A DNA stretch of 64,000 bases from Bacteroidota bacterium (GCA_947453415.1 CANGGG010000005.1:2688-66687); one strand, 5' to 3'. Counted from the stretch's first letter, positions 28,550 to 60,390 are shown. A program made the numbers and translations. Notes: a model not told the origin generated them from the sequence alone.

Positions 28550-28567
28550 TTATGACTGGAGTCATAA
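28550..28567. promoter_or_regulatory. Perfect 7-4-7 palindrome TTATGAC-TGGA-GTCATAA, candidate Crp/Fnr-family site for the nos promoter
   Basis: Centre about 43 nt upstream of the transcription start predicted from the CACCTTTG box at 28588-28595; near-identical copy at 37038-37055. Confidence 0.55.
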
Positions 28568-28621: not shown

Positions 28622-29113
28622 ATGAAAAAAATCTTTGTAATCTTAACATTTGCTTCCATATTATATGCCTGCGGTGGTGGTGAATCAAAATCTGAATCTA
28701 AAACTGAAGAGGCCGTTGAGGCAACAACTGAGGGAACAGCAGCAAATGCAAACCCTGACTATGACCCTAAAAGAGGTGAAGGAAAATTTACTGCAGAAAC
28801 CGTAAAAATAGGTGCAACTATAGATGCAACTATGGTAACAGAAGGCGAAAAAATTCAATCGGTAAAATGCAGTGCTTGCCATAAACTAACTGATGAAAAA
28901 TTAGTTGGTCCAGGTTGGGCGGGTGTAACTAAACGCAGAAACCCAGAATGGATTATGAACTTTATTACCAATCCCGATCCAATGATTGACAAGGATCCAG
29001 TAGTTCAAGCCTCATTAGAACTTTGCTTAGTGCGTATGCCAAACCAAAGTTTAACAGACGATGATGCAAGACATTTATTAGAATTTATGCGTAAAAATGA
29101 CGGTGTTAAATAA
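28622..29113 (+). CDS. Monoheme c-type cytochrome lipoprotein (nos-associated)
   Basis: Lipobox ILYACGG, single CSACH heme motif, distal Met in CLVRMPNQ; 21 nt upstream of nosZ. Confidence 0.85.
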   Translation: MKKIFVILTFASILYACGGGESKSESKTEEAVEATTEGTAANANPDYDPKRGEGKFTAETVKIGATIDATMVTEGEKIQSVKCSACHKLTDEKLVGPGWAGVTKRRNPEWIMNFITNPDPMIDKDPVVQASLELCLVRMPNQSLTDDDARHLLEFMRKNDGVK

Positions 29114-29134: not shown

Positions 29135-31096
29135 ATGAAAAAAAATATAATAATTTTAAGTTCAGTAATAGGCTTGGCCATGCTTTCGGTAGTAGGCTGC
29201 AAACCTAAAAACACAAGCAATGCAACCAGTGCCGATGCAGCACAAAAAGTGTATGTAGCACCTGGTAAATACGATGAAATTTACAACTTTGTAAGTGGTG
29301 GATTCAGTGGTCAAATGAGTGTTTATGGAATTCCGTCTGGTCGTTTGCTACGTGTTATACCCGTATTTTCACAAGATCCAGAAAAAGGTTGGGGTTACAG
29401 TGAAGAAACTAAACCTATGATGAACACATCGCATGGTTTTACTCCTTGGGATGATTTGCACCATGTGCAACTTTCAAAAACCAATGGTGAAGTAGATGGA
29501 AGATGGGTGTTTGGAAATGCAAACAATACACCTCGTGTTGCTCGCATTGATTTAAGCACTTTCCGTACTCAAGAAATTATAGAATTACCAAATAGTGGCG
29601 GAAATCACTCATCTCCTTTTATAACTGAAAATACTGAATACGTTGTTGCAGGTACTCGATTCAGTGTTCCTATGGATGATGCCAATGGCGATGTTCCAAT
29701 TAATACCTACAAACAAAACTTTAAAGGAACTTTGAGTTTTATTAGTGTAGGTAAAGAAGATGGAAAAATGGATATTGCTTTCCAAATAGAATGCCCTGGA
29801 GTAAACTTCGATTTAAGCAGAGCAGGTAAAGGCGTTTCTCATGGATGGTTCTTCTTTTCATGCTACAATACAGAACAAGCTAATACTTTGTTAGAAGTAA
29901 ATGCTTCGCAAAAAGACAAAGATTTTGTAATGGCAGTAAACTGGAAAAAAGCTGAAGAATATTTGAAAGCAGGAAAAGCAAAAAAACAAGCTGTAAGATA
30001 CGCGCACAACACCTACAGCGAAAAAACTCATTCAGCAACTTCTGAAATAAAAACTGAAGTTTTGGTTTTAAATGCTAAAGAGTTAAAAGACATTTGTTAC
30101 TTTATTCCTTGTCCTAAATCGCCACACGGTTGCGATGTATCTCCAACAGGCGAATACATTGTTGCAAGTGGTAAATTAGCTGCTGTTATTCCAGTATTTA
30201 GTTTCGATAAAATTCAAAAAGCTATAGCAGCAAAAAGCTATGATGGCGAATTTGATGGAATTCCAGTTATTAAATACGAATCGGCTTTACAAGGCGAAGT
30301 TAAAAAACCAGGCTTAGGTCCATTGCATACCGAATTTGATGACAATGGAAATGCTTACACTTCAATGTTTGTTTCTTCTGAAGTAGTAAAATGGAGCTTA
30401 AAAGATTTAAAAGTATTAGACAGAGCACCAACTTTTTATTCTATTGGTCACTTATGTGTAGTAGGTGGTGATACTAAAAAACCAACTGGAAAATACTTAA
30501 TTGCTTATAATAAAATTACCAAAGACAGGTATTTACCTACAGGTCCTGAGTTATCGCAAAGCGCACAATTATTCGACATTAGTGGCGACAAAATGAAACT
30601 ACTTTTAGATTTCCCAACCATTGGCGAACCACATTATGCACAAGCATGTTTGGCTAGTTTAATCAAAGACAAATCGGTAAAAATGTTTAAGATTGAAGAA
30701 AACAGCCATCCTTATGTAGCCAAAGGAGAAAAAGAAACTAAAGTAGTAAGAGAAGGAAACAAAGTGCATGTTTACATGACTGCCATTCGCTCACATTTAG
30801 CTCCCGATAATATTGAAGGAATTAAAATGGGAGATGAAGTATATTTCCATGTTACTAACTTAGAGCAAGATTGGGATGTGCCACATGGTTTTGCTATCAA
30901 AGGAGCATCAAATGCTGAGTTATTAATTATGCCAGGTGAAACACAAACTTTAAAATGGATTCCTACTAAAGTGGGTATTTCACCCATGTATTGTACCGAT
31001 TTTTGTAGTGCTTTACACCAAGAAATGCAAGGATATGTTCGAGTTTCACCAGCATCAAGTAAGCTTCCAATTAGCTTTAGTTTAGGTGCTAAATAA
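29135..31096 (+). CDS. nosZ: Nitrous-oxide reductase, Sec/lipoprotein-type (clade II)
   Basis: 653 aa; N-terminus MKKNIIILSSVIGLAMLSVVGC has a lipobox and no twin-arginine; C-terminal CuA motif CTDFCSALHQEMQGY. Confidence 0.95.
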   Translation: MKKNIIILSSVIGLAMLSVVGCKPKNTSNATSADAAQKVYVAPGKYDEIYNFVSGGFSGQMSVYGIPSGRLLRVIPVFSQDPEKGWGYSEETKPMMNTSHGFTPWDDLHHVQLSKTNGEVDGRWVFGNANNTPRVARIDLSTFRTQEIIELPNSGGNHSSPFITENTEYVVAGTRFSVPMDDANGDVPINTYKQNFKGTLSFISVGKEDGKMDIAFQIECPGVNFDLSRAGKGVSHGWFFFSCYNTEQANTLLEVNASQKDKDFVMAVNWKKAEEYLKAGKAKKQAVRYAHNTYSEKTHSATSEIKTEVLVLNAKELKDICYFIPCPKSPHGCDVSPTGEYIVASGKLAAVIPVFSFDKIQKAIAAKSYDGEFDGIPVIKYESALQGEVKKPGLGPLHTEFDDNGNAYTSMFVSSEVVKWSLKDLKVLDRAPTFYSIGHLCVVGGDTKKPTGKYLIAYNKITKDRYLPTGPELSQSAQLFDISGDKMKLLLDFPTIGEPHYAQACLASLIKDKSVKMFKIEENSHPYVAKGEKETKVVREGNKVHVYMTAIRSHLAPDNIEGIKMGDEVYFHVTNLEQDWDVPHGFAIKGASNAELLIMPGETQTLKWIPTKVGISPMYCTDFCSALHQEMQGYVRVSPASSKLPISFSLGAK

Positions 31097-31134: not shown

Positions 31135-31203
31135 GTCAGTTCGAGCGAAGTCGAAAAACTTATATTTTCGTTTTCAACATATTTCGACTTCGCTCAATAT
31201 GAC
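31135..31203. repeat. REP-like inverted repeat GTCAnnnnGAGCGAAGTCGAAA / TTTCGACTTCGCTCnnnnTGAC
   Basis: Perfect 14-bp arms at 31143-31156 and 31182-31195, extendable to about 22 bp with mismatches. Confidence 0.75.
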
Positions 31204-31211: not shown

Positions 31212-31245
31212 AAGAGGCTGCCCTTTTGAGACAGCCTCTTTTATT
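31212..31245 (+). terminator. Hairpin plus T-rich tract after nosZ (terminator or attenuator)
   Basis: AAGAGGCTG-cccttttgaga-CAGCCTCTT followed by TTATTT. Confidence 0.7.
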
Positions 31246-31272: not shown

Positions 31273-32277
31273 ATGAAATTAACAACATTATCGCGCGTGC
31301 TTTTATTAGCAGCAGCCGTACTTTTAGGTTCATCTATTTTTGTTGCCATTTGGCGCATAGAATTAGAAGCACCGCAATATCCTGAGGGCTTAAATCTATT
31401 AATTTATGCCAATAAATTAGGTGGAAACGTAGATATAATAAATGGTTTGAACCATTATATTGGTATGCAAACTTTGCATGCCGAAAACTTTATTGAGTTT
31501 ACCATTTTGCCTTATATCATTGGTTTTTTTGCTGCATTTTCTTTGCTTGCAGCAATACTTGCAAACAAAAAAGTAGCAAATATTTTATTCTTTTCATTTG
31601 TAGCTTTTGGCATTATAGCCATGATTGATTTTTACAGATGGAATTATAATTACGGACATAATTTAGATCCAAATGCAGCCATTATAGTTCCTGGAATGGC
31701 TTATCAACCGCCATTGATTGGCTATAAACAATTATTGAACTTTGGCGCATTTTCAACTCCAGATATTGGTGGTTGGTTTTTTATAACTGCTGGTTTATTC
31801 ATGCTAACCGTATTTGTAACAGGAACAAAACTTTGGGACAAAAAATTTACAAAAAATATTGTTTCATTAGTTGTTTTTGGATTTATATCTATGCTAACTT
31901 CTTGCTCAACAGATGGACCAAAACAACCAAAATTAAATAATACTAATTGCGATTTTTGTAAAATGACCATTGCCAACGAAAAATTTATTGCACAATGTGC
32001 AACCGATAAAGGCAGGGTTTATTACTTTGACGACATTAGTTGCATGGTGAGATTTAAAAGTGAAAACAGTACTATTGCTTTTGAGAATTTTTTTATTGCC
32101 GACTTTAACAATCCAGCTAAATATTTAAAAGGAAGCGAAGCAATTTTGTTTAAAAACGAAGAAATAAAAAGTCCAATGGGCGGCAATATTATTGCTTTTT
32201 CAAAGCAAACCGATGCAGAAGAATTTTTACAAAAACATGCTGCAACAAAAGTTTCATGGACAGAATTAAACAAGTAA
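31273..32277 (+). CDS. nosL: Fusion ORF: N-terminal polytopic membrane domain (NosB-like position) plus C-terminal NosL copper-chaperone domain
   Basis: 334 aa. Residues 1-190 have about 5 TM helices. An internal lipoprotein-like signal KNIVSLVVFGFISMLTSC is followed by the NosL-type CDFCKMTI...YFDDISCM...SPMGGNIIAF. Confidence 0.8.
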   Translation: MKLTTLSRVLLLAAAVLLGSSIFVAIWRIELEAPQYPEGLNLLIYANKLGGNVDIINGLNHYIGMQTLHAENFIEFTILPYIIGFFAAFSLLAAILANKKVANILFFSFVAFGIIAMIDFYRWNYNYGHNLDPNAAIIVPGMAYQPPLIGYKQLLNFGAFSTPDIGGWFFITAGLFMLTVFVTGTKLWDKKFTKNIVSLVVFGFISMLTSCSTDGPKQPKLNNTNCDFCKMTIANEKFIAQCATDKGRVYYFDDISCMVRFKSENSTIAFENFFIADFNNPAKYLKGSEAILFKNEEIKSPMGGNIIAFSKQTDAEEFLQKHAATKVSWTELNK

Positions 32278-32300
32278 TTGATAAAACCAAAAGGCAAACA

Positions 32301-33524
32301 ATGCTAAGTATATTAAGCATTGTTTTTGCATTTATAGCAAATGGTAAAACCATTACCGTTGGTCAAAATAAACAGTGTAAAACTATTCATCAAGCCATAA
32401 AAATTGCGGCAACTTTCGATACCATAGAAATACATGAAGGCTTGTACAAAGAAGGAAATATAGTAGTTGATAAATCGCTGTATATAAAAGGAATTAACAA
32501 GCCTGTTTTAGATGGAGAAAAAAAATTTGAAATTCTTTCTGTAAAATCGAACTTTACTACCATTGATGGTTTAATAGTGCAACATTCGGGTTATGCTACG
32601 CTCGATGATCCAGGTGGAATAAAGGTGTATGATTCGCACCATGTTAACATTATAAACAATACACTTTCTGATAATTTTTTTGGTGTTTATATTCAATACG
32701 GACAACATTGTATAATTAAAAACAACAATATTGAAGCCTTTGGAGTGGAAGAACAGCAAATAGGGAATGGCATTCATTGTTGGAAAAGTGATAGCCTACA
32801 AATTATTGGAAATAAAATTACAGGACACCGAGATGGAATATATTTTGAGTTTGTAAAAGGTTCCATTATTTGGCGAAACATTTCCTATAAAAACATTCGT
32901 TATGGCTTGCATTTTATGTTCTCGAACGATGATGCATATATTGGCAATATATTTAAAAACAATGGCGCTGGTGTATCGGTAATGTTTACCAAAAACGTAA
33001 AAATGTTTAACAATTATTTTATCGATAATTGGGGCGATGCAGCTTATGGATTATTGCTAAAAGAAATATCCGATAGTTATATTTTCAACAACCGTTTTTT
33101 ATCGAACACTTCAGGAATTTATATGGAAGGTACTAGCCGAATAAAAGTGGAAAATAATAGTTTTAATAACAACGGCTGGGGAATGAAAATACAAGCAAGT
33201 TGCATGGAAAATAACATCATCAACAACAATTTTAAAAACAATACTTTCGATGTAAGCACCAATGGTTCTTTGGTATTGAACGTTTTTAACAAAAACTATT
33301 GGGACAAATACGAAGGCTACGATTTAAATAAGGACAATATTGGCGATGTAGCCTATCATCCTTTAAGTTTATTTTCTATTATTGTGGAAAATAATGCTTC
33401 GGTGATGTTGTTGTATCAAAGTTTTTTTGCCATGCTTTTAGATAAATCGGAAAAGGTAATTCCAAGTTTAACACCCACTAATTTTATAGATGAGCAACCC
33501 TTAATGCACCCAATTTTACTATGA
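32301..33524 (+). CDS. nosD: NosD, periplasmic parallel beta-helix copper-centre assembly protein
   Basis: Signal peptide from the ATG at 32301, many NNxI/GIxL beta-helix repeats; ATGA overlap with nosF. Confidence 0.9.
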   Translation: MLSILSIVFAFIANGKTITVGQNKQCKTIHQAIKIAATFDTIEIHEGLYKEGNIVVDKSLYIKGINKPVLDGEKKFEILSVKSNFTTIDGLIVQHSGYATLDDPGGIKVYDSHHVNIINNTLSDNFFGVYIQYGQHCIIKNNNIEAFGVEEQQIGNGIHCWKSDSLQIIGNKITGHRDGIYFEFVKGSIIWRNISYKNIRYGLHFMFSNDDAYIGNIFKNNGAGVSVMFTKNVKMFNNYFIDNWGDAAYGLLLKEISDSYIFNNRFLSNTSGIYMEGTSRIKVENNSFNNNGWGMKIQASCMENNIINNNFKNNTFDVSTNGSLVLNVFNKNYWDKYEGYDLNKDNIGDVAYHPLSLFSIIVENNASVMLLYQSFFAMLLDKSEKVIPSLTPTNFIDEQPLMHPILL

Positions 33525-34234
33525 TAGCTATTCAAAATATTTCGAAAAAATTTGGTAAACTAACAGTTTTAGATGGTTCCTCGGCTCAATTTAATAAAGG
33601 TGAATGCATTGCTTTAATTGGCCCGAACGGTTGCGGAAAAACTACTTTAATAAAAAGTATTTTAGGAATGGTAGTTCCCAATACTGGCAATATTTTGTTC
33701 AATGATGTTTCCATAAAAAATGAATTTTTATACAGAAACAATATTGGTTACATGCCGCAAATAGGTCGCTATCCCGAAAACATGAACATTGGCCAAGTAA
33801 TTGATATGATAAAAAATATTAGAAATTATAACAGTCAATTAGATGAAGAATTATTGGATTTATACAAAATAAAAGACCTGCTTAACAAAAAAATGAGAAC
33901 GCTTTCGGGCGGAACTACTCAAAAAATAAGCGCAACCATTGCATTTTTATTTAACCCCGATGTATTGATTTTAGATGAACCCACAGCAGGTTTAGATCCT
34001 TTGGCAGCGGAAATTTTAAAGGAAAAAATTATTAAGGAAAAACAAAAAGGCAAGCTCATTATTATTACATCGCACTTACTCAGTGAGCTAGATGAGTTGG
34101 TAACGCAAGTGGTTTTTATGCAAGATGGAAAAATAAAGTTTCATAAAAACACCGAAGAATTAAAAAACGATACGCAAATGCCAACTATTGCCAAGGCAAT
34201 TACTCATATTTTAAAAGCTACTGCGCATGAATAG
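33521..34234 (+). CDS. nosF: NosF ABC ATPase
   Basis: Walker A GPNGCGKTT, signature LSGGTTQK, Walker B ILDEP. Confidence 0.9.
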   Translation: MIAIQNISKKFGKLTVLDGSSAQFNKGECIALIGPNGCGKTTLIKSILGMVVPNTGNILFNDVSIKNEFLYRNNIGYMPQIGRYPENMNIGQVIDMIKNIRNYNSQLDEELLDLYKIKDLLNKKMRTLSGGTTQKISATIAFLFNPDVLILDEPTAGLDPLAAEILKEKIIKEKQKGKLIIITSHLLSELDELVTQVVFMQDGKIKFHKNTEELKNDTQMPTIAKAITHILKATAHE

Positions 34235-34994
34235 ATTGATAAAATTTGTAGTACTCGACATGATAAAGAATAGAACCATTTTGGGTTATACTTTGCTTTT
34301 AGCAATATTTAGCTGGAGTGTTTTTGGACTAGAAGACAATGCCACCAAAGGCGTTTTAACTTTGCTAAATATTATGCTTTTAATAGTTCCATTGGTAAGT
34401 ATAATTTTTTCAACTATTTATATTTATAATAGTTCCGAATTTATTGATTTAATGGTAAGTCAGCCGGTAAAAAGAAGTAAAATTTGGACCAGTTTATTTA
34501 TTGGTTTAAGCATTTCGCAAATATTGGCTTTTGTAGTTGGAGTAGGCATTCCGTTGTTATTATTTGCACCAATAAACATTGCATTGAGCATGATAAGCGT
34601 TGGCTGTATAGTTAGTATTATATTTATTGCCATTGCTTTTTTAGCTTGCGCAATTACGCACGATAAATCAAAGGGAATTGGTGTTTCTATTATGCTTTGG
34701 TTATACTTTGCTTTGCTGTTTGACGGATTAGTATTGTTCCTGTTGTTTCAATTTGCAGACTATCCAATTGAGCATATTATGATTGGAATAACCATGCTAA
34801 GCCCAATTGATATGGCACGAATACTCATATTATTACAGTTAAATGTGTCGGCATTACTTGGACATACGGGAGCTATTTTTACTGATTTTTTCGGTACAAT
34901 AATTGGAACTTTTATTTCTACCTTTGTACTTTGCCTTTGGGCAATTATTCCATTTTATTTATCTTTACGCATGTTTAACAAAAAAGACTTATAA
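34227..34994 (+). CDS. nosY: NosY ABC-2 type permease
   Basis: 255 aa, six TM helices, 8-nt overlap with nosF. Confidence 0.85.
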   Translation: MNRLIKFVVLDMIKNRTILGYTLLLAIFSWSVFGLEDNATKGVLTLLNIMLLIVPLVSIIFSTIYIYNSSEFIDLMVSQPVKRSKIWTSLFIGLSISQILAFVVGVGIPLLLFAPINIALSMISVGCIVSIIFIAIAFLACAITHDKSKGIGVSIMLWLYFALLFDGLVLFLLFQFADYPIEHIMIGITMLSPIDMARILILLQLNVSALLGHTGAIFTDFFGTIIGTFISTFVLCLWAIIPFYLSLRMFNKKDL

Positions 34995-34997: not shown

Positions 34998-35912
34998 ATG
35001 ACGAATATTGAGATTTTAGTCAATCAAATTAAAGAAAAGTACGAAAAACTAGGAGAAAATCCTGAAACATATTTAAAAGGATTGCTGCAAGCAAAACCTA
35101 TAAACTATTGGGATTACATAGAAGTTGACACCTTATTATCGCTTCAAAAGCCAAGAACAAACTTTAAAGATGAAGAAATTTTCATCATGTACCATCAGGT
35201 AACAGAATTGTTTTTAAAACTAATGTTACATGAAATAAAACAAGTAGCAGTTGAAGCAATTTATACGGAAGAGTTTTTGATGAATAAATTTACAAGAATC
35301 ATTCGTTACACGCAAATGCTAATTAATTCCTTCGATATTATGAAAGACGGAATGAATTACGATGATTACAATGTATTTAGAGCAACTTTAGCGCCAGCAA
35401 GTGGTTTTCAAAGTGCGCAATTTAGGTTCATTGAATTGCATTGTACCGGATTAGAAAACTTAATGAATGAAGCAGGTAGAGAACGTATAAGTTTAAATCC
35501 AACTACCGAAGAATACTTTGACCATATCTATTGGAAAGATGCTGGATTGAACAGAAAAACCGGCAAAAAAAATCTGACACTTACCTTATTTGAAGAAAAA
35601 TATTTACATCAATTCATCAGTTTAGCAAACACCATGAAAGGAAAAACTATAGCTGATAGACTGAATGAATTACCTAATAAATCGGAAGCATTATTAAACA
35701 TGTTAAGAGAGTTTGACCATTTGTATAATGTGGCTTGGCCAATGGTTCATTTAAATACTGCAAAGCATTATTTAGACAGTAAAAACGAGAACCAACAAGC
35801 AACGGGAGGTTCTGAATGGAAAAAATACTTAATGCCTAAATTCCAACAGCGTAAGTTTTTTCCTGCTTTTTGGAGCAATGAAGAAAAAGAAAAATGGGGT
35901 GAAAGCATTTAA
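34998..35912 (+). CDS. Tryptophan 2,3-dioxygenase family heme protein
   Basis: YWDYIEVDTLLSLQKP...DEEIFIMYHQVTELFLKL, LAPASGFQSAQFRFIE, ...MVHLNTAKHYL...TGGS align with the TDO signature regions as I recall them; starts 3 nt after the nosY stop. Confidence 0.85.
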   Translation: MTNIEILVNQIKEKYEKLGENPETYLKGLLQAKPINYWDYIEVDTLLSLQKPRTNFKDEEIFIMYHQVTELFLKLMLHEIKQVAVEAIYTEEFLMNKFTRIIRYTQMLINSFDIMKDGMNYDDYNVFRATLAPASGFQSAQFRFIELHCTGLENLMNEAGRERISLNPTTEEYFDHIYWKDAGLNRKTGKKNLTLTLFEEKYLHQFISLANTMKGKTIADRLNELPNKSEALLNMLREFDHLYNVAWPMVHLNTAKHYLDSKNENQQATGGSEWKKYLMPKFQQRKFFPAFWSNEEKEKWGESI

Positions 35913-35915
35913 ATA

Positions 35916-36293
35916 ATGGAAGACATTGATATTATTAATGACATAAAAACTAAAATTGACATAGAAATTCTAGTCAATGCATTTTATGAAAAAGTAAAAA
36001 AAGACAACCAAATCAGTCACTTTTTCAAACATGTAAACTGGAAAACTCATATGCCAATTATGTATGTATTTTGGGAAAACGTACTTTTTTATACAGGAAG
36101 TTATGTTGGAAATCCAATGCTTTTACACAAAAAATTGCATGCACATATGCCTTTAAGCAAAAAAGATTTTGACCAATGGATTCATTTATTTCATGAAACA
36201 ATCAATGAAAATTATGAAGGAAAAATGGCTGAGGCAATGAAAGAAAGAGCCAATAATATATCCATTATAATGCAAACTAAAATATTGGTTTAA
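35916..36293 (+). CDS. Group III truncated hemoglobin
   Basis: 125 aa; FYEKVKKDNQISHFF, GSYVGNPMLLHKKLH, FDQWIHLFHETI resemble Ctb-type trHb; starts 3 nt after the TDO stop. Confidence 0.85.
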   Translation: MEDIDIINDIKTKIDIEILVNAFYEKVKKDNQISHFFKHVNWKTHMPIMYVFWENVLFYTGSYVGNPMLLHKKLHAHMPLSKKDFDQWIHLFHETINENYEGKMAEAMKERANNISIIMQTKILV

Positions 36294-36326
36294 CAACCTT
36301 CAATTACAACATTAAATACAAAACAA

Positions 36327-36360
36327 AATGGCTGCATTTATAAAATAAATGCAGCCATTT
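36327..36360. terminator. Bidirectional terminator between the nos operon and the fasciclin gene
   Basis: AAATGGCTGCATTTA-taaaa-TAAATGCAGCCATTT followed by TTATT. Confidence 0.85.
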
Positions 36361-36426
36361 TTATTAGAAACCCTTCAATAAATTAATTAAAACTTGAACA
36401 TAAAAATTGTGTCTGATAAAAAATCA

Positions 36427-36987
36427 CTAATTACCTGGAAGTAAAACTTCGTCTATAACATGAATAATACCGTTAGAGGCTGGAATAGAAGCTAAAATAT
36501 GCGCTTTTCCATTAACAACTGGTTTACCATCAACCATTGTAATTTTTATATTCCCACCATTTACTTGACCAAATGTTTGACCATCTTGCAAAGATTCTGG
36601 TTTAAGCACACCAACATAAACGTGGTATTGTAAAATATCAGTCAATGCATCTATTTTTTCTGGTTTTAATAAACCTTCAACCGTGCCAGCAGGTAATTTA
36701 TCGAAAGCTGCATTAGTAGGAGCAAATACAGTAAAAGGTCCTGCATTACTTAAAACATCCACTAATTTAGCGGCAGTAACGGCAGCAACTAAAGTTGTAT
36801 GATCCTTACTTCCAACTGCTACTTGAACAACGTTTGGATTTGATACATCATCTTTAACACCTGATTGACCAGCACCTGTGGCTTCAGTTTGAGTTGCTTC
36901 AGCTTCTTTAGCTGGAGTATTTGCGCTATTACAGCTAGCAGCTAGCATGGCTGCTACTACGATACAATTTTTTATTACTTTTTTCAT
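36427..36987 (-). CDS. Fasciclin (FAS1) domain lipoprotein
   Basis: Lipobox MLAASC, low-complexity linker, then ...TVFAPTNAAFDKLP...GIIHVIDEVLLP FAS1 motifs. Confidence 0.88.
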   Translation of the reverse strand: MKKVIKNCIVVAAMLAASCNSANTPAKEAEATQTEATGAGQSGVKDDVSNPNVVQVAVGSKDHTTLVAAVTAAKLVDVLSNAGPFTVFAPTNAAFDKLPAGTVEGLLKPEKIDALTDILQYHVYVGVLKPESLQDGQTFGQVNGGNIKITMVDGKPVVNGKAHILASIPASNGIIHVIDEVLLPGN

Positions 36988-37009
36988 ATTTCTGTATTTT
37001 ATACAGCAT

Positions 37010-37017
37010 CAAATTGA
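37010..37017 (-). promoter_or_regulatory. -7-like box TCAATTTG for the fasciclin gene
   Basis: Plus CAAATTGA 23 nt upstream of the ATG. Confidence 0.4.
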
Positions 37018-37037
37018 CAACTATTTATATTTATTTA

Positions 37038-37055
37038 TTATGACCCGAATCATAA
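37038..37055. promoter_or_regulatory. Second copy of the Crp/Fnr-type box: TTATGAC-CCGA-ATCATAA
   Basis: 13 of 14 arm positions match the 28550 palindrome; centre again about 43 nt upstream of the predicted transcription start. Confidence 0.5.
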
Positions 37056-37103
37056 AAACAAAATGATATTCAGCATTAAGAAATAATATTAAAAAACTAA
37101 AAA

Positions 37104-39113
37104 TTAGTTCAAATAATAATTGAATCCAATTGAAACATTCCTCCCAAACTGAGGTACGCCACCCCAATCTAAGTGTTCGCGATAATTTAAATCAAGCAAA
37201 TTCTCAATACCAATGTTTAATTGAAAAGATGAAGTTTTAATTGCTTTAGCAAAAGCAACTCTAGCATTAAATATTTGCCAAGATGAAGTTTTACTTTCAC
37301 CAAAATCTATATTTATATTTTTTTGACTAGATGCTAATACATGTTCTATTTGAAACTGAAATGTATTCTTTTGATATCGCAATGTATTGACAAATTTCAA
37401 AGGTGGAACTTGCTGCATAAACTGGCCATTACTTAACAATCCATATGTAAATCGAACATTTCCTTTGTATATAATTTTCTTCAAAAGTTTAACAGTTGTA
37501 GCAGTTTCAAATCCCATAAGTTGAGCATTACTAATATTGGCATATGTTTTAACTCCTCTACCTCCTATAGTCATTGGGCTATATTTATTAAGAATATAAC
37601 CATAAATATAATTTTCAATTTGATGAAAAAATAAAGTTGTATTAAAATTCCATTTTTTCTTATCAATGGTATTTGAAAATTCCATTTGTATGGCTTTTTC
37701 TGGCGCTAAATTGTAGTTACCTATATAATCAAAACCATCGGCACGATTAAATAAATAAAAACCAATTCTTTCATTGCTAGTTGGCAATCTTTGCCCATAA
37801 CCAATTGTGAATTTATTGGTAAAAACACCTTTTTTTATTTGAAAAAACAAAGAAGAAGTAGTTAAAAAATTCTGTTTATTTTCATTCGTATTTATTCCAA
37901 ATCCTTGCCATTGTAAAACACCAAATTCATCCGTTACGTATTGATAGTTATAATCTTCTCGAATATTAAAACCAATACATTTTAGGCTATCAATATTTAA
38001 CAAATAATTAGCAGCCAAACCAATATTATACAAAAAATTCCCTGGTAAAGTTTGCATAAACATTGGCTTTTCATTGTTTGGATACATAGTCATTTCAGCT
38101 TTTGTAAATGCTTGATGTGCATCAATTCTAACATTGAAAAGTTGTTTTTTTAGTTGTATTTTATATTGAGAATAAAATCCATTGGTGTAACTCCAACTTG
38201 GCATGTCCATGTGCATAATAGTTTCAAGTCTGTGGGTATCATCCATGGCATGAGTAATGTTGTTATGGTAAAATTTTGTTTCTAAAACTTTATTATAATT
38301 ACTTGAAACAAATCGATGTGTTACAGAAAAAATATTGGCTTTTGCAAACGCAACATCCATGGGTAAAGCAGGGTAACCAATATTAGATCCATTGTCGTTT
38401 ATATAGTCGAAAATAATATGATTGGTTTTGTTTAATTGATAAGCAACACTAAAGTTCAAATTCAATTTTTCGTAACCACTATGTAAAATAGTAATGTCTC
38501 CTCCTGCTTTGTAATCATTAGCTTTTCTATATGCACCACTCATTCTTAAAGCAAATTTATTAGAGTTGGTATTTAAGCTAAATCCAATGTTTTTTGAAAG
38601 ATTGGCGAAGCCATATTGCGTATAAAAATTTATTTGTGGATGGTCTTTACAATTAAATGAAGCTTCCTTCAATTGTATGTTCAAACTTCCTCCAATGGTA
38701 CTTCCCAATAAGCCACCAGCAGTTCCTTGGTTTACTTCTAATTTACTTAAATTACTGGGTTCAACATATGTTGTAACAGGATCCATTTTATCTGTACAAG
38801 CACCGTACATTTTCATTCCATTTAAGGTAATGTTTATTTGTCCGGCACTGTAAGTTCTAAGGGTTGGTTCCATTCCAAATGCGCCTCTTCTTATTAAATT
38901 TACACCTTCTATTCGTTGTAAAATATCTTCGGTGCTAGCTAATTTGCTGCTTCTGTAAAAGTTAAATGCTTCATTGGTTTTATTGGTTTCGTTTTCGCAA
39001 ATTACTACTTCTTTCAGCGTTGTAATTTTGTTGGCTGAATCAATAGCATTGAATTGAGAAAAACCTTTAAAATAAAAAAATAGCAGTAAAATAAATACGT
39101 TTTTTTTCGACAT
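37104..39113 (-). CDS. TonB-dependent outer-membrane receptor
   Basis: 669 aa, signal peptide, plug domain (...RIEGVNLIRRGAFGMEPTLRTY...), beta-barrel with aromatic-rich strands. Confidence 0.88.
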   Translation of the reverse strand: MSKKNVFILLLFFYFKGFSQFNAIDSANKITTLKEVVICENETNKTNEAFNFYRSSKLASTEDILQRIEGVNLIRRGAFGMEPTLRTYSAGQINITLNGMKMYGACTDKMDPVTTYVEPSNLSKLEVNQGTAGGLLGSTIGGSLNIQLKEASFNCKDHPQINFYTQYGFANLSKNIGFSLNTNSNKFALRMSGAYRKANDYKAGGDITILHSGYEKLNLNFSVAYQLNKTNHIIFDYINDNGSNIGYPALPMDVAFAKANIFSVTHRFVSSNYNKVLETKFYHNNITHAMDDTHRLETIMHMDMPSWSYTNGFYSQYKIQLKKQLFNVRIDAHQAFTKAEMTMYPNNEKPMFMQTLPGNFLYNIGLAANYLLNIDSLKCIGFNIREDYNYQYVTDEFGVLQWQGFGINTNENKQNFLTTSSLFFQIKKGVFTNKFTIGYGQRLPTSNERIGFYLFNRADGFDYIGNYNLAPEKAIQMEFSNTIDKKKWNFNTTLFFHQIENYIYGYILNKYSPMTIGGRGVKTYANISNAQLMGFETATTVKLLKKIIYKGNVRFTYGLLSNGQFMQQVPPLKFVNTLRYQKNTFQFQIEHVLASSQKNINIDFGESKTSSWQIFNARVAFAKAIKTSSFQLNIGIENLLDLNYREHLDWGGVPQFGRNVSIGFNYYLN

Positions 39114-39176
39114 AATTAAATAAAAACAAAGAACATTTATATCTTAAATGCTCTTTGTTAATAATTGTTTTTAAAT

Positions 39177-40004
39177 TTATAAAGTTATATCAAACGATTG
39201 GTTATCACTAATAATAACACCATTCTTTTTGATTATAATTTTTACATTCCATAATCCTGTCATGGTAAAATTAACTAATCCTGTATAATGTCCCAATTCA
39301 GTAAAAACTGGATTTACATTATTTGGTGAACCGTGACCCATGCTAGGCATTATTGGAACTATTTCTACATTATAATCATCTACTGCTGTAAAACCCATCA
39401 ATGAATCTTTTTTATGAATAGAAATCTCGAAATTATTTAAACCAATTTTTGGTAAATTTGGCTGAATTAATGATACAAAAAGATTGGTACTGTCATTTGC
39501 AGTAAAACTTTTCATCACTGAAGTGGTTGGATTTATAATAGAAACTTCCAATTCTCCATCACCTTCCATGTCTATTTTATGGTTATGAAAAGCCATGTTT
39601 AAAGTCCATTTGCCCGCTGTACTTGGCATTATAAAAACAATGGCCGCTTTCCAAAATTTATCAGCGGGCATGGTGTCTTCTTCTAATTCTATAGGTGCTG
39701 CATGTGCTAACATTTCCATATCAACCATTATAGAATTTGCATCAAAATGGCCATTTGTTAATCGTGTATTTGTAACTGAATCATACATGGCTACAAATAT
39801 TTTATTATATCCTACAAATAGCTCTTTTTCAGCATAAACTTTTGCTTTGGCCGCAGCGCCATAAATATAGGTTTCACCAATTAATTTATAATTACTTGGA
39901 ATTTCATCTGTTGGAGTTGGTATTATTGATTCATCTTTTTTACATGCTTTTGTAGCAAGTAATATGGTAGCAAATGTAATTGCCAATATTGTTTTAAATT
40001 TCAT
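39177..40004 (-). CDS. Lipoprotein with two YtkA/FixH-like Ig-fold repeats carrying Met/His-rich motifs
   Basis: Lipobox LATKAC; MVDMEMLAHAAP...GKWTLNMAFHNH and IMPSMGHGSPNN...GLWNVKIIIKKNG; the domain name is my recollection of the family. Confidence 0.65.
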   Translation of the reverse strand: MKFKTILAITFATILLATKACKKDESIIPTPTDEIPSNYKLIGETYIYGAAAKAKVYAEKELFVGYNKIFVAMYDSVTNTRLTNGHFDANSIMVDMEMLAHAAPIELEEDTMPADKFWKAAIVFIMPSTAGKWTLNMAFHNHKIDMEGDGELEVSIINPTTSVMKSFTANDSTNLFVSLIQPNLPKIGLNNFEISIHKKDSLMGFTAVDDYNVEIVPIMPSMGHGSPNNVNPVFTELGHYTGLVNFTMTGLWNVKIIIKKNGVIISDNQSFDITL

Positions 40005-40082
40005 AAAAGGTAATTGTTTTTTTTAAAATAATTGAGGTTACGATTTTGATAAAAATCGTTCAAGTAAAATCAGTAAAATAAA

Positions 40083-40457
40083 TTAATATTTTGGTGGCTG
40101 AAATATTCTTGGCTCAAAAGCAGTTAGAAGTTTACTGCTATATTTAATAAAAAAATGAAAAGAAACAAATTGCAAAAATATATTTGAAGTGTGTTTTTCA
40201 AAAAATAAAACTTCTTCAATATTGTTCTTGTTAGTATTTGAATTAGTACTTTTGGGAGTATCAGCTTCTTCGGTGTTTTTTAAAGTATTTTTCAAATAAC
40301 ATTTACCCTTACATTTCAGTTCTGGCTTAGCTTTATTTATACAGAATAATTCTATTATTTGCTTTTGATTTATTTTAAACCAAGTAATTACACCTACCCT
40401 ATTGGTTAATTGCAATAGCATACAAAGTAAAAGCGATATGGATATCATTCTTTTCAA
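40083..40457 (-). CDS. Small Cys-motif membrane-anchored hypothetical protein
   Basis: About 121-124 aa (TTG at 40457 or ATG at 40448); N-terminal TM helix, CINKAKPELKCKGKCYL, C-terminal ...FQPPKY. Confidence 0.6.
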   Translation of the reverse strand: MKRMISISLLLCMLLQLTNRVGVITWFKINQKQIIELFCINKAKPELKCKGKCYLKNTLKNTEEADTPKSTNSNTNKNNIEEVLFFEKHTSNIFLQFVSFHFFIKYSSKLLTAFEPRIFQPPKY

Positions 40458-40504: not shown

Positions 40505-41737
40505 TCATAATAAATGCTTAATTTTTTTAATTTTCAAATTCACAAAAAACAAAGAGAATGTAGCTAAAAACAAACACAAGGCAATGGCAAATAAAATGGT
40601 GTTCACATAAGGAATAACAGTATAACTAAATGAAGCAATTCCTTGAATAGCTAAAACAAATTCATTTAAAAATACGCCAATTGCAAAGCAAAGCAATGCA
40701 ATAATTCCACTTTTAGCATGAGATAACAAATGTGTGCTGAATAAATAAAGCAATAATAAAATAGAAATAAATGCCAATAAAACTAAATGCAAATAGGCAA
40801 TTACAATGGGCCTGAATCCAAAAGCTAATGTGCTTACAAAAGGAATGGTGGAGCCTAATTGCAATGTAAATTTTACAAAACCAGCTATGGCCACAAAGTA
40901 AATTAAAAACATAATAGTATTTGAGTATTTACTTTGTAAATGAAGGTGGTAAAAAACACTTTTTAACAATAAAATCCAGCCAACAAACTGGGTAAAGGCA
41001 GCAGCAACTACAATGATATAAAGCCAAATAGGAAGATGAGCCCAAAGTGTAGATAGAAAATATGCTGGTATACAAGACCAAAACAAAAGTCCAAATATCA
41101 ATTTATCGTTTTTTATTACCACATTAAATTTATTAGCAAGGCCAGTAAATAAACCCATGCAAGCAAAGAAGAACCAACCATTATATTGAAAATGTAAATA
41201 GAAATATACTGAAGCTAAATAAGGTGTTTGATGCAAGTTTTTAGTAACCATCATATATGCCAAAGCAACAGTTCCTAATGCAGAAAAAATGGCGAAAACT
41301 AAAGCGCCTTTGAACCATTTTATAGCTTGAAAATATTGTTTAAATTGAGTAGAATGATTAAAAAACAACTGTGTAAAAACTACAATTATAGCTACTGAAA
41401 CAGCAGAAAATGTAATAGAAAAAAAGCCATATCCTTGAATAAAAAATGAAACCAATATGCCATAAGCACTTATCAAATTTAACCAAAGTAAAATATTGTA
41501 TTTTTTTAATTGAAATAATTTTAAGAAAGGTGCAATTAAACTAACTATTAACACCAAAAGTGTTTGCGTTACCCAACCTACAAAGGCAAAGTGTGAATGG
41601 GCATGTTGCACATTTTTTTGATCGAAATAAGGGAATTCAAAACCAATTTTAAACCTCATAAGTACACCTAAACTGGCAACAATAAAAAGGTTAAACAACG
41701 CAATTTTTATCCAAAAACTGGAAGAATATTTAATCAT
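40505..41737 (-). CDS. His-rich 12-TM integral membrane protein (tentatively NnrS-like)
   Basis: 410 aa, about 12 TM helices; conserved-looking HAHSHFAFVGW, YLHFQYNGWFFF, AYLHLVLL; its ATG overlaps the regulator stop (TAATG). Confidence 0.8.
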   Translation of the reverse strand: MIKYSSSFWIKIALFNLFIVASLGVLMRFKIGFEFPYFDQKNVQHAHSHFAFVGWVTQTLLVLIVSLIAPFLKLFQLKKYNILLWLNLISAYGILVSFFIQGYGFFSITFSAVSVAIIVVFTQLFFNHSTQFKQYFQAIKWFKGALVFAIFSALGTVALAYMMVTKNLHQTPYLASVYFYLHFQYNGWFFFACMGLFTGLANKFNVVIKNDKLIFGLLFWSCIPAYFLSTLWAHLPIWLYIIVVAAAFTQFVGWILLLKSVFYHLHLQSKYSNTIMFLIYFVAIAGFVKFTLQLGSTIPFVSTLAFGFRPIVIAYLHLVLLAFISILLLLYLFSTHLLSHAKSGIIALLCFAIGVFLNEFVLAIQGIASFSYTVIPYVNTILFAIALCLFLATFSLFFVNLKIKKIKHLL

Positions 41738-42339
41738 TAAATATACAATTTTCTGTTAATAATTTGAACTTGATTTTTATTCTCCATTTTTTTAAGCGTT
41801 CTAATTACAGTTTCTACTCTTAAACCAGTTAAATTAGCTATTTCTTGGCGCGTATGAGAAATCAATAACGGAGAAATATTCGAATCATCTTTCTTTTTTA
41901 TTGAATGTAAAAATCCTAAAATTTTCAGATCTGGAGTATTATGAATAAGTTCTCGAGCTGTAATTGATTTGTTGTAAATTTTTTGAGCAAAAATTTTCAA
42001 AAAATTAAATTGAATTTTAGGATCATCTTCAATCATTTTAAAAAAACTTGCTTTAGAAAGTACCATTATTATAGAATCTTTTTGAACAATGGCTGTAGAA
42101 GGATATTTTTCGTTAATAAACAATGGAGGTTCGCCAAATCCATTTCCATCATAAAAAATTCCTTGAATGTATTCACTTCCATCGTTATGCAAATTAATTA
42201 ATTTGACTTGACCTTCGATGATTTGGTAGTAAAATTGTGCAATATCATCTTCAGAAAAAACAATTTGATTTTTTCTGAATTTTTTTGCAACACCACCCCA
42301 AGCAATCAAAATGTTTATATCAATTTGCGTACTATTCAT
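41737..42339 (-). CDS. Crp/Fnr family transcriptional regulator without any cysteine
   Basis: 200 aa; cNMP-binding beta-roll (...QIIEGQVKL...GFGEPPLF...), C-terminal HTH TRQEIANLTGLRVETVIRTLKKM. Confidence 0.88.
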   Translation of the reverse strand: MNSTQIDINILIAWGGVAKKFRKNQIVFSEDDIAQFYYQIIEGQVKLINLHNDGSEYIQGIFYDGNGFGEPPLFINEKYPSTAIVQKDSIIMVLSKASFFKMIEDDPKIQFNFLKIFAQKIYNKSITARELIHNTPDLKILGFLHSIKKKDDSNISPLLISHTRQEIANLTGLRVETVIRTLKKMENKNQVQIINRKLYI

Positions 42340-42418: not shown

Positions 42419-42772
42419 CTAAAATGAATCAATTTGCGTTAAAAAGGGCTGAGCTAATTTAAATGGAGCCACATTGCAGTATGCAGCTGTTAAAACCTCC
42501 ATTAATAGGTCTTTTTCTATTAATTTTAAATTTACTAAAGTCCAACCATATTTGCCGGCTCTATTTGGAACTGCATAAATGATGGAAGCATCAATCATAC
42601 AAAACAATGGCTGTTCTTCTAAACTTAATTTTACACAGCACCTATTTTCTTTTTGATTATGGGTAACAAATATTTTTCCTTTTATTTTATAACATAACAT
42701 ATTTCTATGAGGTGCTTCTGTTGTTTCAGGATATAACAATGGTAATTCTTTGAAACTTTCGTTTGAAACCAT
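42419..42772 (-). CDS. MmcQ/YjbR-like protein
   Basis: 117 aa; ...YKIKGKIFVTH...WTLVNL... pattern of the YjbR fold (from memory). Confidence 0.6.
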   Translation of the reverse strand: MVSNESFKELPLLYPETTEAPHRNMLCYKIKGKIFVTHNQKENRCCVKLSLEEQPLFCMIDASIIYAVPNRAGKYGWTLVNLKLIEKDLLMEVLTAAYCNVAPFKLAQPFLTQIDSF

Positions 42773-42774
42773 GA

Positions 42775-43344
42775 TTATTCTATTACAATTTTATATTTAT
42801 GGAGTAATCCCGAAATTCCCTCATTTGAAAATTTCGCACCTTTTACTTTATTTAATTCTAAATCTATTCCATAATGATGAGATGTTCTAAAATCTACTTT
42901 TTCAATTACACTTTGCTGGAAAACCGACATGGTTAAATCACAGTCCAAAAACTTAGATTCTGATAAATCACATTCCGAAAAATCAACTTCTTTGATGCTG
43001 CAATTTTTAAAAACAGTTTTCTTTATTTTTTTCTTAAAAAATGAGGCATAATCTAAGGTACAATTTTCAAAAGTAAATGATAGTAAAAAGTCTTTACAAC
43101 GAGCAAAATCAAGCCCTAACAGCTTACAGTTTTTAAACTTAGCATCAATAAAAGCAGTATTATTTAATTTACCTAAACTGAAATCACAATTATCGAAAAA
43201 GCATTCAACAAAACTGATGCTTGCCAAGTCGCTTTTGGAAAAATTACAGTTTATAAAATGCACGGAATCATATTCATTTTCAGGCATTTTAATCAATGTA
43301 AAATCAACTCCATTAATGGTATTTTCTTGCATGGTTTGTAGCAT
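42775..43344 (-). CDS. Pentapeptide-repeat protein (Qnr/MfpA-like size and layout)
   Basis: 189 aa of A(D/N)LXX-type repeats: FINCNFSKSDLASISFVECFFDNCDFSLGKLNNTAFIDAKFKNCKL... Confidence 0.85.
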   Translation of the reverse strand: MLQTMQENTINGVDFTLIKMPENEYDSVHFINCNFSKSDLASISFVECFFDNCDFSLGKLNNTAFIDAKFKNCKLLGLDFARCKDFLLSFTFENCTLDYASFFKKKIKKTVFKNCSIKEVDFSECDLSESKFLDCDLTMSVFQQSVIEKVDFRTSHHYGIDLELNKVKGAKFSNEGISGLLHKYKIVIE

Positions 43345-43363
43345 TATTAAAGTGTTAAATATA

Positions 43364-43849
43364 TTAGCTTTTAATTTTTATTGGAATCCATATTTCTTCC
43401 TCAGAATTAGGGTCATTGTTTTTGTATTTTGCCCCTAATAATTCAAAATGAGGCCTATTGTCAAGTTTATAATTAGAATTGGGAAGCCAAGTTTGAAAAA
43501 TATATTGAAATGTTTGAGCTGCATCACTTCCATTGCCTTTATAATCAAAAACTGCATATAATCCACCTTCCAAAACAAACGATTTCATTCCATTTGGAAA
43601 ACTTTCAAAATCAGCAACTTCAACTACAGCCCACTTTTCAAAATATGCATTGATGTCAAAATTATCAAAACTATATGTTGAGTCATAAACCTGCATTGAT
43701 ATTAAATCAGTAGAAATATTGTTTTGAATTTCTTTGCGTTTTGGCATAAAGCTGCTCCACAAATAAAAAGTTTTATTATTGGCCAAATTCATGTTTAAAT
43801 GCATGCCTACCAATTTCTTTGTTGTTAATAATTCAATTCTTGGAATCAC
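43364..43849 (-). CDS. GyrI-like (SbmC/Rob effector-binding fold) small-molecule-binding protein
   Basis: 161 aa; ...KKLVGMHLNM..., ...GGLYAVFDYKG..., ...RPHFELLG...EEEIWIPIK. Confidence 0.75.
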   Translation of the reverse strand: MIPRIELLTTKKLVGMHLNMNLANNKTFYLWSSFMPKRKEIQNNISTDLISMQVYDSTYSFDNFDINAYFEKWAVVEVADFESFPNGMKSFVLEGGLYAVFDYKGNGSDAAQTFQYIFQTWLPNSNYKLDNRPHFELLGAKYKNNDPNSEEEIWIPIKIKS

Positions 43850-43862
43850 TTTACTTTAAATT

Positions 43863-45209: not shown

Positions 45210-45218
45210 AAATAATTT

Positions 45219-46202: not shown

Positions 46203-46213
46203 TGTTGTGGTGC

Positions 46214-47686: not shown

Positions 47687-47755
47687 TATTTTGCGACCTT
47701 TAAATAGAGTTGCAAATTAACAAAATAGCTCGTTTTAAAAATGATGATTATTTAA

Positions 47756-57723: not shown

Positions 57724-57730
57724 AAACTAT

Positions 57731-59119: not shown

Positions 59120-59138
59120 AATATAAATTTATAAAAAC

Positions 59139-60272: not shown

Positions 60273-60274
60273 AA

Positions 60275-60316
60275 GGCCACTGGCTATTGGCTCTTAGCCA
60301 CTAGCTACTATTTACT
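60275..60316. repeat. GGCYAYT heptamer array (6 units) after the adaptor gene
   Basis: ggccact ggctatt ggctctt agccact agctact atttact; followed by two AGCCAAAGGC words at 60341 and 60366. Confidence 0.8.
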
Positions 60317-60390
60317 TAAAAGTTAAATTACAAAAAATACAGCCAAAGGCCGTTTAGTTAGTGGAAGCCAAAGGCAAAAAGCAAAAAAAT

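Follow-up and report, generated by a model that had tools for sequence, protein, structure and literature searches.

The clade II nitrous oxide reductase (nos) clusters described for Flavobacterium consist of nosZ, nosL, nosD, nosF, and nosY, and neither a globin nor a tryptophan dioxygenase is mentioned for them (PMC9697520). Among the group III truncated hemoglobins (trHbs), Ctb of Campylobacter jejuni responds to nitrosative stress through activation by NssR, a regulator of the Crp family (PMC4601167), gave no protection against NO in that organism (PMC5577044), and has been implicated in O2 metabolism (PMC4601167; PMC5577044); an oxy-ferrous group III-like trHb reacts with NO at approximately 1e6 M-1 s-1 (PMC5577044). 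Four or more of the five kynurenine-pathway enzymes are present in 28 Bacteroidetes genomes (PMC4217691). Here, we analyzed a 64,000-nucleotide stretch from a Bacteroidota bacterium (GCA_947453415.1 CANGGG010000005.1:2688-66687; i.e., the window), in which genes encoding a tryptophan 2,3-dioxygenase (TDO)-family protein and a group III trHb directly follow nosY at the end of a nos operon. The core of this operon resembles the Flavobacterium clusters in its order (nosZ-nosL-nosD-nosF-nosY), in its membrane domain-NosL fusion (an idea taken from PMC9697520), and in its Sec-type NosZ, while it differs in the two apparently cytoplasmic heme proteins appended to it, an arrangement seen in one clade of 14 species-level genomes. 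The families themselves (i.e., TDO, group III trHb, and clade II nos) are known; what is new is the extension of a nos operon by a conserved module of two heme proteins, which in other contexts is part of an Rrf2-type stress cluster. None of the papers listed in our literature searches placed a TDO in a nos cluster or an NO regulon or paired a TDO with a trHb, and the conserved, putatively O2/NO-regulated TDO-trHb module is apparently undescribed.

A previous reading of this stretch (i.e., the sequence-only reading) had placed the TDO-like gene 3 nt after the nosY stop codon and the trHb gene 3 nt after the TDO stop codon, and both distances agree with our open reading frame (ORF) map and with the sequence (Table 1). 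The preceding genes overlap (nosL/nosD, 22 nt; nosD/nosF, 4 nt; nosF/nosY, 8 nt), the nosY/TDO and TDO/trHb junctions are free of hairpins (-1.5 and -3.0 kcal/mol), and the 17-bp hairpin 3' of the trHb gene is followed by a U-run (UUUUUAUU). The operon-like layout proposed for the pair and nosDFY is thereby upheld, and the TDO gene lies on the same strand as nosDFY with a translationally coupled spacing that is kept across genomes. The further statement that the first terminator comes only after the trHb gene is correct for the nosLDFY part and incorrect for the operon as a whole, because a conserved hairpin with a U-run separates nosZ from nosL. Since a similar hairpin with a T-run was seen by eye in the other nos-linked loci in which the spacer was read, the element at 31212-31240 is probably a partial terminator (i.e., an attenuator). 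The order of the nos operon is promoter box, cytochrome c, nosZ, attenuator hairpin, nosL-nosD-nosF-nosY, TDO, trHb, and terminator. Scans of the window against Rfam and for tRNAs revealed no RNA genes. Bacteroidota promoters use elements other than those of the sigma-70 type, and a sigma-70 promoter scan of the window was uninformative (39 found versus 43 expected).

Pfam and PDB matches agree with the families that the sequence-only reading had assigned to the two proteins. The TDO ORF matched the Pfam family Trp_dioxygenase (PF03301) with 85.5 bits (cutoff, 34.9; residues 35 to 179), and 15 of its 15 sequence matches in PDB were TDOs. The trHb ORF matched Pfam Bac_globin with 34.3 bits (cutoff, 21); its best solved relative was Ctb (2IG3; E = 1.1e-10), with group I globins at 1e-3 or weaker. 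We consider it virtually certain that both genes and their family assignments are real.

The window TDO resembles the bacterial enzyme (KynA; Xanthomonas campestris, 2NW7; Cupriavidus metallidurans, 2NOX) in Pfam family, fold, and length (304 amino acids [aa]), and the two share both histidines, the Tyr/Arg pair for the Trp carboxylate, the Thr of a GTGGS-type loop, and the N-terminal Tyr residues. The equivalents of H240 and H55 of the X. campestris enzyme (XcTDO) are H251 (in WPMVH) and H66 (in YHQVTEL), both of which are invariant in a 12-member family alignment; the C-terminal stretch holding H251 aligns at a low score, and its motif is clear. Residues Y24, Y27, L28, F51, Y113, R117, L120, and T254 of XcTDO, whose functions in L-tryptophan (L-Trp) recognition we take to be those of the published structure, correspond to Y37, Y40, I41, F62, Y124, R128, L131, and T269 (in ATGGS), and all of these except I41 are invariant in the same alignment. 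An AF2 model of the protein (pLDDT, 70.4) had TDO entries as its best 43 Foldseek matches in PDB (probability, 0.87 to 1.0), with MarE at rank 44 and TM-scores of 0.41 to 0.44. The low TM-score would fit a misplaced N-terminal arm in the monomer model, but the fold match is weak support; with a model of only moderate quality (pLDDT, 70), all residue-level statements were made without it.

The subfamily to which this protein belongs comprises >7,600 database proteins, and 75 representatives at the 50% cluster level pass an E value of 1e-30. In 80 genome loci its members are 66 to 99% identical (i.e., at least 66% over this compact Bacteroidota group), and they adjoin nos, Rrf2/RIC/hemerythrin, or cbb3 genes instead of kynB or kynU. 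In one representative, which is 38% identical and shares the motifs of the subfamily, the TDO is joined to a bona fide kynurenine 3-monooxygenase (KMO) that matches the Pseudomonas fluorescens KMO at E = 5.5e-38. This 814-aa fusion (L085, 7665-10109; L086, 3844-6288; metagenomic contig) is encoded by the last gene of an operon with trpE-D-C/F-B-A, DAHP synthase, and TrpRS. Because the heme and Trp residues are kept and a subfamily member is fused to KMO, the window protein is probably a genuine tryptophan dioxygenase, predicted still to bind and oxidize L-Trp, and not a generic gas scavenger. The sequence-only reading had set the pair apart from kynurenine-pathway metabolism; the invariant heme and L-Trp residues and the KMO fusion at the end of a trp operon speak against that separation. 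A degenerate, non-catalytic relative of TDO was also considered and was ruled out, every catalytic and substrate residue being invariant. Another subfamily member (P0127; 395 aa; 44% identity) has a tandem CDGSH iron-sulfur domain at its N terminus, which may be a built-in redox partner for reductive heme activation.

In the trHb, Y24, H45, H70, and W88 align with TyrB10, HisE7, HisF8, and TrpG8 of Ctb, and these four columns are at least 95% conserved in the 48 TDO-linked globins that were recovered by ORF calling. The window shares with the C. jejuni Ctb/NssR system these residues, an FNR-like palindrome, and a Crp/Fnr-family regulator nearby. It differs in that the trHb is paired with TDO in a nos operon, has no Cgb-like single-domain globin as a partner, and stands near a regulator with no cysteine, whereas NssR has one. 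By analogy, the Ctb precedent would suit a helper role for the trHb more than that of a front-line detoxifier. The nos-linked globins also carry a His-rich insertion of 3 to 4 residues directly after the proximal His (e.g., HKKLHAHMP and HRHIHHLHP), which is present in the window trHb (residues ~70 to 78) and in L008, L011, L018 to L020, L031, and L066, and which is absent from the Rrf2-linked globins and from Ctb. Globins of the nos-linked and Rrf2-linked types are 35 to 39% identical, while their TDOs are ~70% identical.

A scan of one genome per species yielded 482 genomes with the TDO subfamily, and we analyzed the best 80 loci together with the window (compared loci are labeled L006, etc.). 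Genes in these loci were called as simple ATG-start ORFs, with some starts off and a few genes missed; the tblastn counts are independent of these calls. Most of the loci come from metagenome-assembled genomes, some with implausible taxon labels. Specifically, the records of L012, L019, L028, L042, and L044 are labeled Methylacidiphilales, Bifidobacteriaceae, Agrobacterium, Burkholderiales, or Hydrocarboniphaga, which are probably binning or labeling errors; the loci are clearly of the Bacteroidota type.

The TDO gene lies directly 3' of nosY in 14 species-level genomes (gaps of 1 to 24 nt), and the pairing with nos, for which the sequence-only reading had asked for a co-occurrence analysis in Bacteroidota, is thus not unique to the window. 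A trHb gene lies 3' of TDO in 12 of the 14 loci (gaps of 2 to 47 nt), and TDO and nosY remain neighbors in loci with as little as 70% TDO identity and 77% NosZ identity. In L025 (11036-12780), the place of the trHb gene is taken by two genes, one for a NorC-like cytochrome c and one for a divergent protein of the COX1 family (NorB-like), and in L026 a small cupin-like ORF follows TDO in its place. In a neighbor-joining tree, the nos-linked TDOs form one clade with a nested subclade (L009 to L017) in which TDO occurs alone. Two segments of the window (42419-48910 and 57088-63774; GyrI-like, YjbR, peptidase, and RND genes) are syntenic with two loci of this subclade (L016 and L017), in which the GyrI-like and YjbR genes flank a solitary TDO; relative to these loci, the window has the segment from TDO to YjbR in inverted and expanded form. 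Since the flanks are syntenic with TDO-alone loci, the nos island and TDO were joined or separated by rearrangement within one chromosomal neighborhood, the synteny reflecting either a recent rearrangement or the gain or loss of the nos island. The nos-linked pair is best explained as a lineage-specific relocation of a conserved Bacteroidota pair of TDO and group III trHb.

Regulatory motifs were identified by eye and by simple palindrome counts, and the raw counts are inflated by closely related loci. Exact matches to TATGAY-N4-RTCATA occur twice in the window versus 0.02 expected (Table 1), and this palindrome or a close variant lies 5' of the cytochrome c gene in every nos-linked locus. The center of the window box at 28551-28566 lies 33 nt upstream of a -7-like element (CACCTTTG) and 63.5 nt upstream of the ATG of the cytochrome c gene. 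The nos promoters share this distance of 33 nt between the box center and a -7-like nAnnTTTG element, which would be typical of class II activation by Crp/Fnr proteins. In the subclade with TDO alone, TTGAY-N4-RTCAT was found ~61 to 67 nt upstream of the TDO ATG in 8 of 8 loci, and in 6 of the 7 upstream regions analyzed the box lies 33 nt from a -7 element (CATATTTG), as in the nos promoters. The retention of the box type after TDO has left the nos operon argues against accidental co-transcription. The Crp/Fnr-family regulator of the window gave only generic Crp/FixK/Fnr matches in NCBIfam, and the locus has the layout of the NssR-Ctb type (i.e., a Crp/Fnr regulator and an FNR-like palindrome 5' of the trHb unit) with a putative binding site. 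On these grounds, the TDO-trHb pair very likely belongs to an O2/NO-responsive regulon.

Over the whole set of 81 loci, 50 have a globin gene no more than 1.6 kb from TDO. Among the 50 loci with wide flanks, 43 contain one or more of the globin, Rrf2, RIC/hemerythrin, heme-copper oxidase, and nos genes, and 31 contain an Rrf2 gene. The commonest order other than nos is Rrf2, a cbb3-like subunit I of 711 aa (optional, accompanied by a FixO-cytochrome c fusion and small proteins), globin, a 144-aa membrane protein, TDO, an optional small cupin, RIC/ScdA, hemerythrin, and a Fer2-like protein; the RIC protein exceeds its equivalog cutoff (TIGR03652; 240 versus 204.7 bits). A conserved, operator-like palindrome, rGGAyA-N5-TrTCCy (e.g., ATCGGATAAATTTGTCCGAT), precedes the Rrf2 genes by ~40 to 60 nt and recurs upstream of the next operon (L024, L028, L046, L052, L053, L056, L071, L073, L077, L080 to L082, and others), just upstream of a TAnnTTTG -7 element. 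This motif is a candidate site of an uncharacterized Bacteroidota Rrf2 regulator of globin, TDO, RIC, hemerythrin, and the cbb3-like oxidase. The arrangement is reminiscent of NsrR-type (Rrf2) regulons with YtfE/RIC and Hmp, since in most other Bacteroidota the pair stands behind an Rrf2 gene and operator, together with RIC and hemerythrin. It differs from them in its operator, which is unlike the NsrR sites familiar to us, and in the superfamily-level match of its Rrf2 protein. We know of no described NsrR regulon that contains a TDO, and our literature searches found no paper combining the two.

The window itself lacks the Rrf2 gene and its operator: GGAYA-N5-TRTCC with up to one mismatch gave 0 matches versus 2.45 expected, so that the window pair would not be under that regulator within the 64 kb, and no homologues of Rrf2, RIC, hemerythrin, the cbb3-like oxidase, or the 144-aa membrane protein were found in the window. 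TDO was also seen in further contexts. In L021 (555-7608) and L023 (3875-10912), both from the most basal branch of the TDO tree, a cbb3 oxidase operon (ccoNO-ccoP-ccoG-ccoH-dsbD) ends with TDO; in L055, a true cbb3 operon precedes the globin-TDO pair; and in L053, a cluster of the Rrf2 type abuts nosY tail to tail. The globin gene precedes TDO in the Rrf2 type and follows it in the nos type, and the preservation of adjacency despite different gene orders suggests functional coupling. Wherever the TDO-trHb pair is present, it sits with regulators and genes of microoxic or nitrosative physiology.

Two components of the Rrf2 clusters are worth recording in their own right. The heme-copper oxidase (L032 to L036, L040, L057, L063, L070, L072, L074, L075, L077 to L079, L081, and L084; e.g., L040, 5351-7486, and L081, 7476-8483) is unusual in its 711-aa subunit I, which is extended at the N terminus by ~250 aa and has a CcoN-like core that scores well under the ccoN cutoff. 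It comes with a FixO-cytochrome c fusion and two to three small proteins without a family match, and it may be either NO reductase-like or a specialized cbb3 enzyme. The 144-aa protein between globin and TDO (e.g., L024, 9554-9985; at least 27 loci) is predicted to cross the membrane several times, matches no Pfam or NCBIfam family, and does not occur in the nos-linked loci.

Table 1. Coordinates of the nos operon, the TDO-trHb pair, and neighboring features in the 64-kb window
Feature	Position	Strand	Evidence or remark
nosY (ABC-2 permease)	34227..34994	+	Pfam ABC2_membrane_2; 8-nt overlap with nosF
TDO, Bacteroidota subfamily, 304 aa	34998..35912	+	Distal His66, Tyr124, Arg128, proximal His251, Thr269 in ATGGS
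Group III truncated hemoglobin (trHb), 125 aa	35916..36293	+	TyrB10, HisE7, HisF8, TrpG8; His-rich insertion after F8
FNR/CRP-type palindrome TATGACTGGAGTCATA, putative nos activator site	28551..28566	.	Conserved upstream of cytochrome c in other loci
Cytochrome c, first gene of the operon	28622..29113	+	Pfam Cytochrom_C; upstream of nosZ in 10 loci
nosZ, Sec-dependent clade II N2O reductase	29135..31096	+	TIGR04246, 941 bits versus cutoff 625
Hairpin and U-run in the nosZ-nosL spacer	31212..31240	+	-16.3 kcal/mol
Membrane domain-NosL fusion (NosB/NosL-type), copper chaperone	31273..32277	+	Pfam NosL, residues 223-332
nosD	32256..33524	+	TIGR04247, 404.6 bits versus cutoff 300
nosF (ABC ATPase)	33521..34234	+	Pfam ABC_tran; 4-nt overlap with nosD
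Bidirectional intrinsic terminator, common to the convergent fasciclin gene	36325..36361	.	17-bp hairpin, -21.8 kcal/mol, z = -8.5
Fasciclin-domain protein, signal-like N terminus, putative regulon member	36427..36987	-	Pfam Fasciclin; beside the operon in 10 loci
Second palindrome copy TATGACCCGAATCATA	37039..37054	.	~50 nt upstream of the fasciclin gene; likewise in L006, L011, L025
TonB-dependent receptor (NosA/OprC-like)	37104..39113	-	Pfam Plug, TonB_dep_Rec; TIGR01778 135.8 bits, below cutoff 472
YtkA-like domain lipoprotein, possibly copper handling	39177..40004	-	Pfam YtkA; syntenic in nos-linked loci
410-aa polytopic membrane protein	40505..41737	-	No family match; recurs in nos islands; adjoins TDO in L055
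Crp/Fnr-family regulator without cysteine, candidate palindrome binder	41737..42339	-	Pfam cNMP_binding and HTH_Crp_2

The remaining features of the nos island are summarized in Table 1. The cytochrome c encoded by the first gene is a probable electron donor to NosZ. The arm on the other strand (36427-40457) encodes the fasciclin protein, the TonB-dependent receptor, for which the best-matching model was a copper receptor (TIGR01778, below cutoff), the YtkA-like lipoprotein, and a 124-aa protein, and it looks like a copper-acquisition set for NosZ. The 410-aa protein beside the Crp/Fnr regulator (also in L026, L031, and L011) has conserved histidines and no Pfam or NCBIfam match, and might be an NnrS-like or a copper/heme membrane protein. 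In the nosZ-nosL spacer, a long inverted repeat (~31143-31196; GAGCGAAGUCGAAA ... UUUCGACUUCGCUC; -26.3 kcal/mol, z = -6.5) precedes the terminator-like hairpin and also occurs in the close relatives L006 to L008.

For the role of the pair, we tentatively prefer hypoxia/NO compensation: the module would support a vulnerable enzyme that depends on O2, and would be co-regulated with N2O respiration without acting as a maturation or protection factor for NosZ. TDO would still convert L-Trp and O2 to N-formylkynurenine (NFK), the first step of the kynurenine/NAD route, which is present in many Bacteroidota. The enzyme would need O2 and a ferrous heme that is poisoned by NO, so the cell would raise its expression when O2 is scarce and NO or N2O is present, keeping up the flux from Trp to NFK, probably for NAD. 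The co-expressed trHb might serve TDO by scavenging NO, by acting as a high-affinity O2 buffer, or by keeping the heme ferrous, and we put forward the mechanism with the trHb as such a helper with rather more reserve. Yeast HEM13 is a hypoxia-induced, O2-dependent enzyme. It offers an analogy for an O2-dependent biosynthetic enzyme whose flux is held by a low-O2 regulator; it has no homology to TDO, for which we infer low-O2 induction.

Several observations weigh against this explanation. The window TDO scored 99.8 bits against an equivalog cutoff of 390.7 bits (TIGR03036), matching profile positions 5 to 118 only; it aligns well with the solved TDOs, including the KynA enzymes above, at residues ~32 to 148 and weakly in the C-terminal part, and its C-terminal half is divergent. 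Given this divergence and the low score, the protein may carry out an altered reaction with an amino acid resembling Trp. At 34919, inside nosY and 79 nt before the TDO start, lies a -7 motif of the Bacteroidetes type (TACCTTTG), which may be an internal promoter giving separate transcription of TDO. No other kynurenine gene is co-located with TDO: a KMO homologue was found neither in the window nor up to 10 kb from TDO in the 80 loci (tblastn; one weak, irrelevant match), no kynurenine-pathway gene is among the ~45 annotated ORFs of the window (the sequence-only reading had likewise noted none nearby), and no kynurenine enzymes are among the recurrent neighbor families of TDO in the compared loci, the immediate neighbors in the TDO-alone loci being unrelated housekeeping genes. 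Since KMO and 3-hydroxyanthranilate dioxygenase also need O2, compensation for TDO only would be puzzling. Moreover, the Rrf2 protein matches the superfamily model only, with NsrR, IscR, and RirA below cutoff, and the TDO tree is a neighbor-joining tree without support values. Distant subfamily members (40 to 52% identity) occur in unrelated contexts, and the association is therefore a property of the core Bacteroidota group.

The foremost alternative, which we regard as possible though rather unlikely, is that the pair scavenges or detoxifies O2 and NO, thereby protecting N2O reduction and keeping NosZ active under microoxic, NO-containing conditions, with the trHb as an NO dioxygenase or O2 trap and TDO burning O2 with sacrificial Trp or handling NO at its heme. 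The linkage conserved in 14 genomes and the position of the pair in a nos island with copper-uptake and regulator genes on its other side are in keeping with such protection, as are the TDO of L025 between nosY and NorC/NorB-like genes, the NO-stress genes (RIC, hemerythrin, and the Rrf2 regulator) with which the pair travels elsewhere, and the rate at which group III-like oxy-ferrous trHb reacts with NO. The two proteins, however, have no signal-like N terminus, while the N termini of NosZ, the cytochrome c, and the fasciclin protein are hydrophobic and signal-like (judged by eye and not with a predictor), and direct protection of the periplasmic CuZ is ranked lower because of this. A scavenger would also leave the fully conserved amino acid-binding residues hard to explain, and bacterial TDO, with a Km for O2 of roughly 100 micromolar, would be a poor scavenger next to cbb3 oxidases. 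Furthermore, Ctb was not NO-protective in C. jejuni (PMC5577044), and L009 to L017 keep a regulated TDO without nos and without a globin. The proposal of the sequence-only reading that the pair is an O2/NO module therefore stands as to the link with O2/NO biology, which is broader than proposed (Rrf2/RIC/hemerythrin, ccoNOPGH, and NorC/NorB-like contexts), and not as to direct protection of periplasmic CuZ, which is not obvious.

It is distinctly unlikely that TDO, induced by NO or low O2, makes NFK or kynurenine derivatives that act as radical or NO scavengers, redox mediators, or an O2-proportional signal, with the globin tuning the supply of O2 and NO. The Trp site is intact, the regulation is apparently linked to stress or hypoxia, small cupins, a Fer2-like protein, and the conserved 144-aa membrane protein accompany TDO, and with no downstream kynurenine gene nearby, the product might be an end product. 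Against this, no formamidase, exporter, or sensor for the product was identified, kynurenine-derived scavengers are, to our knowledge, known from other organisms only, and the idea is inferential throughout.

Very improbable, in our view, is an incidental linkage, in which a housekeeping kynA for NAD synthesis came to lie beside an inserted or rearranged nos island and co-transcription is functionally meaningless. The synteny of the flanks (42.4 to 48.9 and 57 to 63.7 kb) with L016 and L017 would fit an island joining a resident TDO, and the canonical active site and the subfamily member fused to KMO would fit a housekeeping enzyme. Nevertheless, the adjacency holds down to the TDO and NosZ identities given above, unlinked TDO keeps the box type at equal spacing, the trHb accompanies TDO in 50 of the 81 loci in two gene orders, and the Rrf2 cluster, cbb3 operon, and nor contexts independently indicate one physiology. 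A non-catalytic TDO-family protein working with the globin as a heme-based gas sensor or heme carrier, which the score far under the TDO equivalog cutoff, the divergent C-terminal half, and the natural fusion to a CDGSH domain might suggest, can be dismissed as scarcely credible, since the catalytic and substrate residues are all invariant, an output or DNA-binding domain is absent, and the KMO fusion in a trp operon favors catalysis.

The association is robust, and the mechanism is inferential. The pair points to a link between tryptophan oxidation and low-oxygen life with nitrogen oxides. There is an outside chance that TDO and group III trHb form a dedicated Bacteroidota two-heme system that handles NO and/or O2 and is needed for N2O/NO respiration at low O2, possibly through Trp-dependent NO consumption, a globin that hands O2 on to the dioxygenase, or a kynurenine signal proportional to O2; if true, this would be the first clear physiological role of group III trHbs and a role of bacterial TDO outside NAD synthesis. 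The nos/TDO palindrome and the Rrf2 operator are candidate motifs that can be used to map regulons. Bacteroidota with clade II NosZ are of particular interest for the mitigation of N2O emission, and the two extra operon genes may affect N2O reduction or viability under O2 and NO. No function has been agreed on for group III trHbs, and bacterial TDOs are regarded solely as the gateway to kynurenine and NAD metabolism. The retention of the pair in dozens of Bacteroidota species, under two types of regulator (i.e., Rrf2 or Crp/Fnr) and beside nos, nor-like, RIC, hemerythrin, and cbb3 genes, provides a concrete and testable physiological setting for both proteins.

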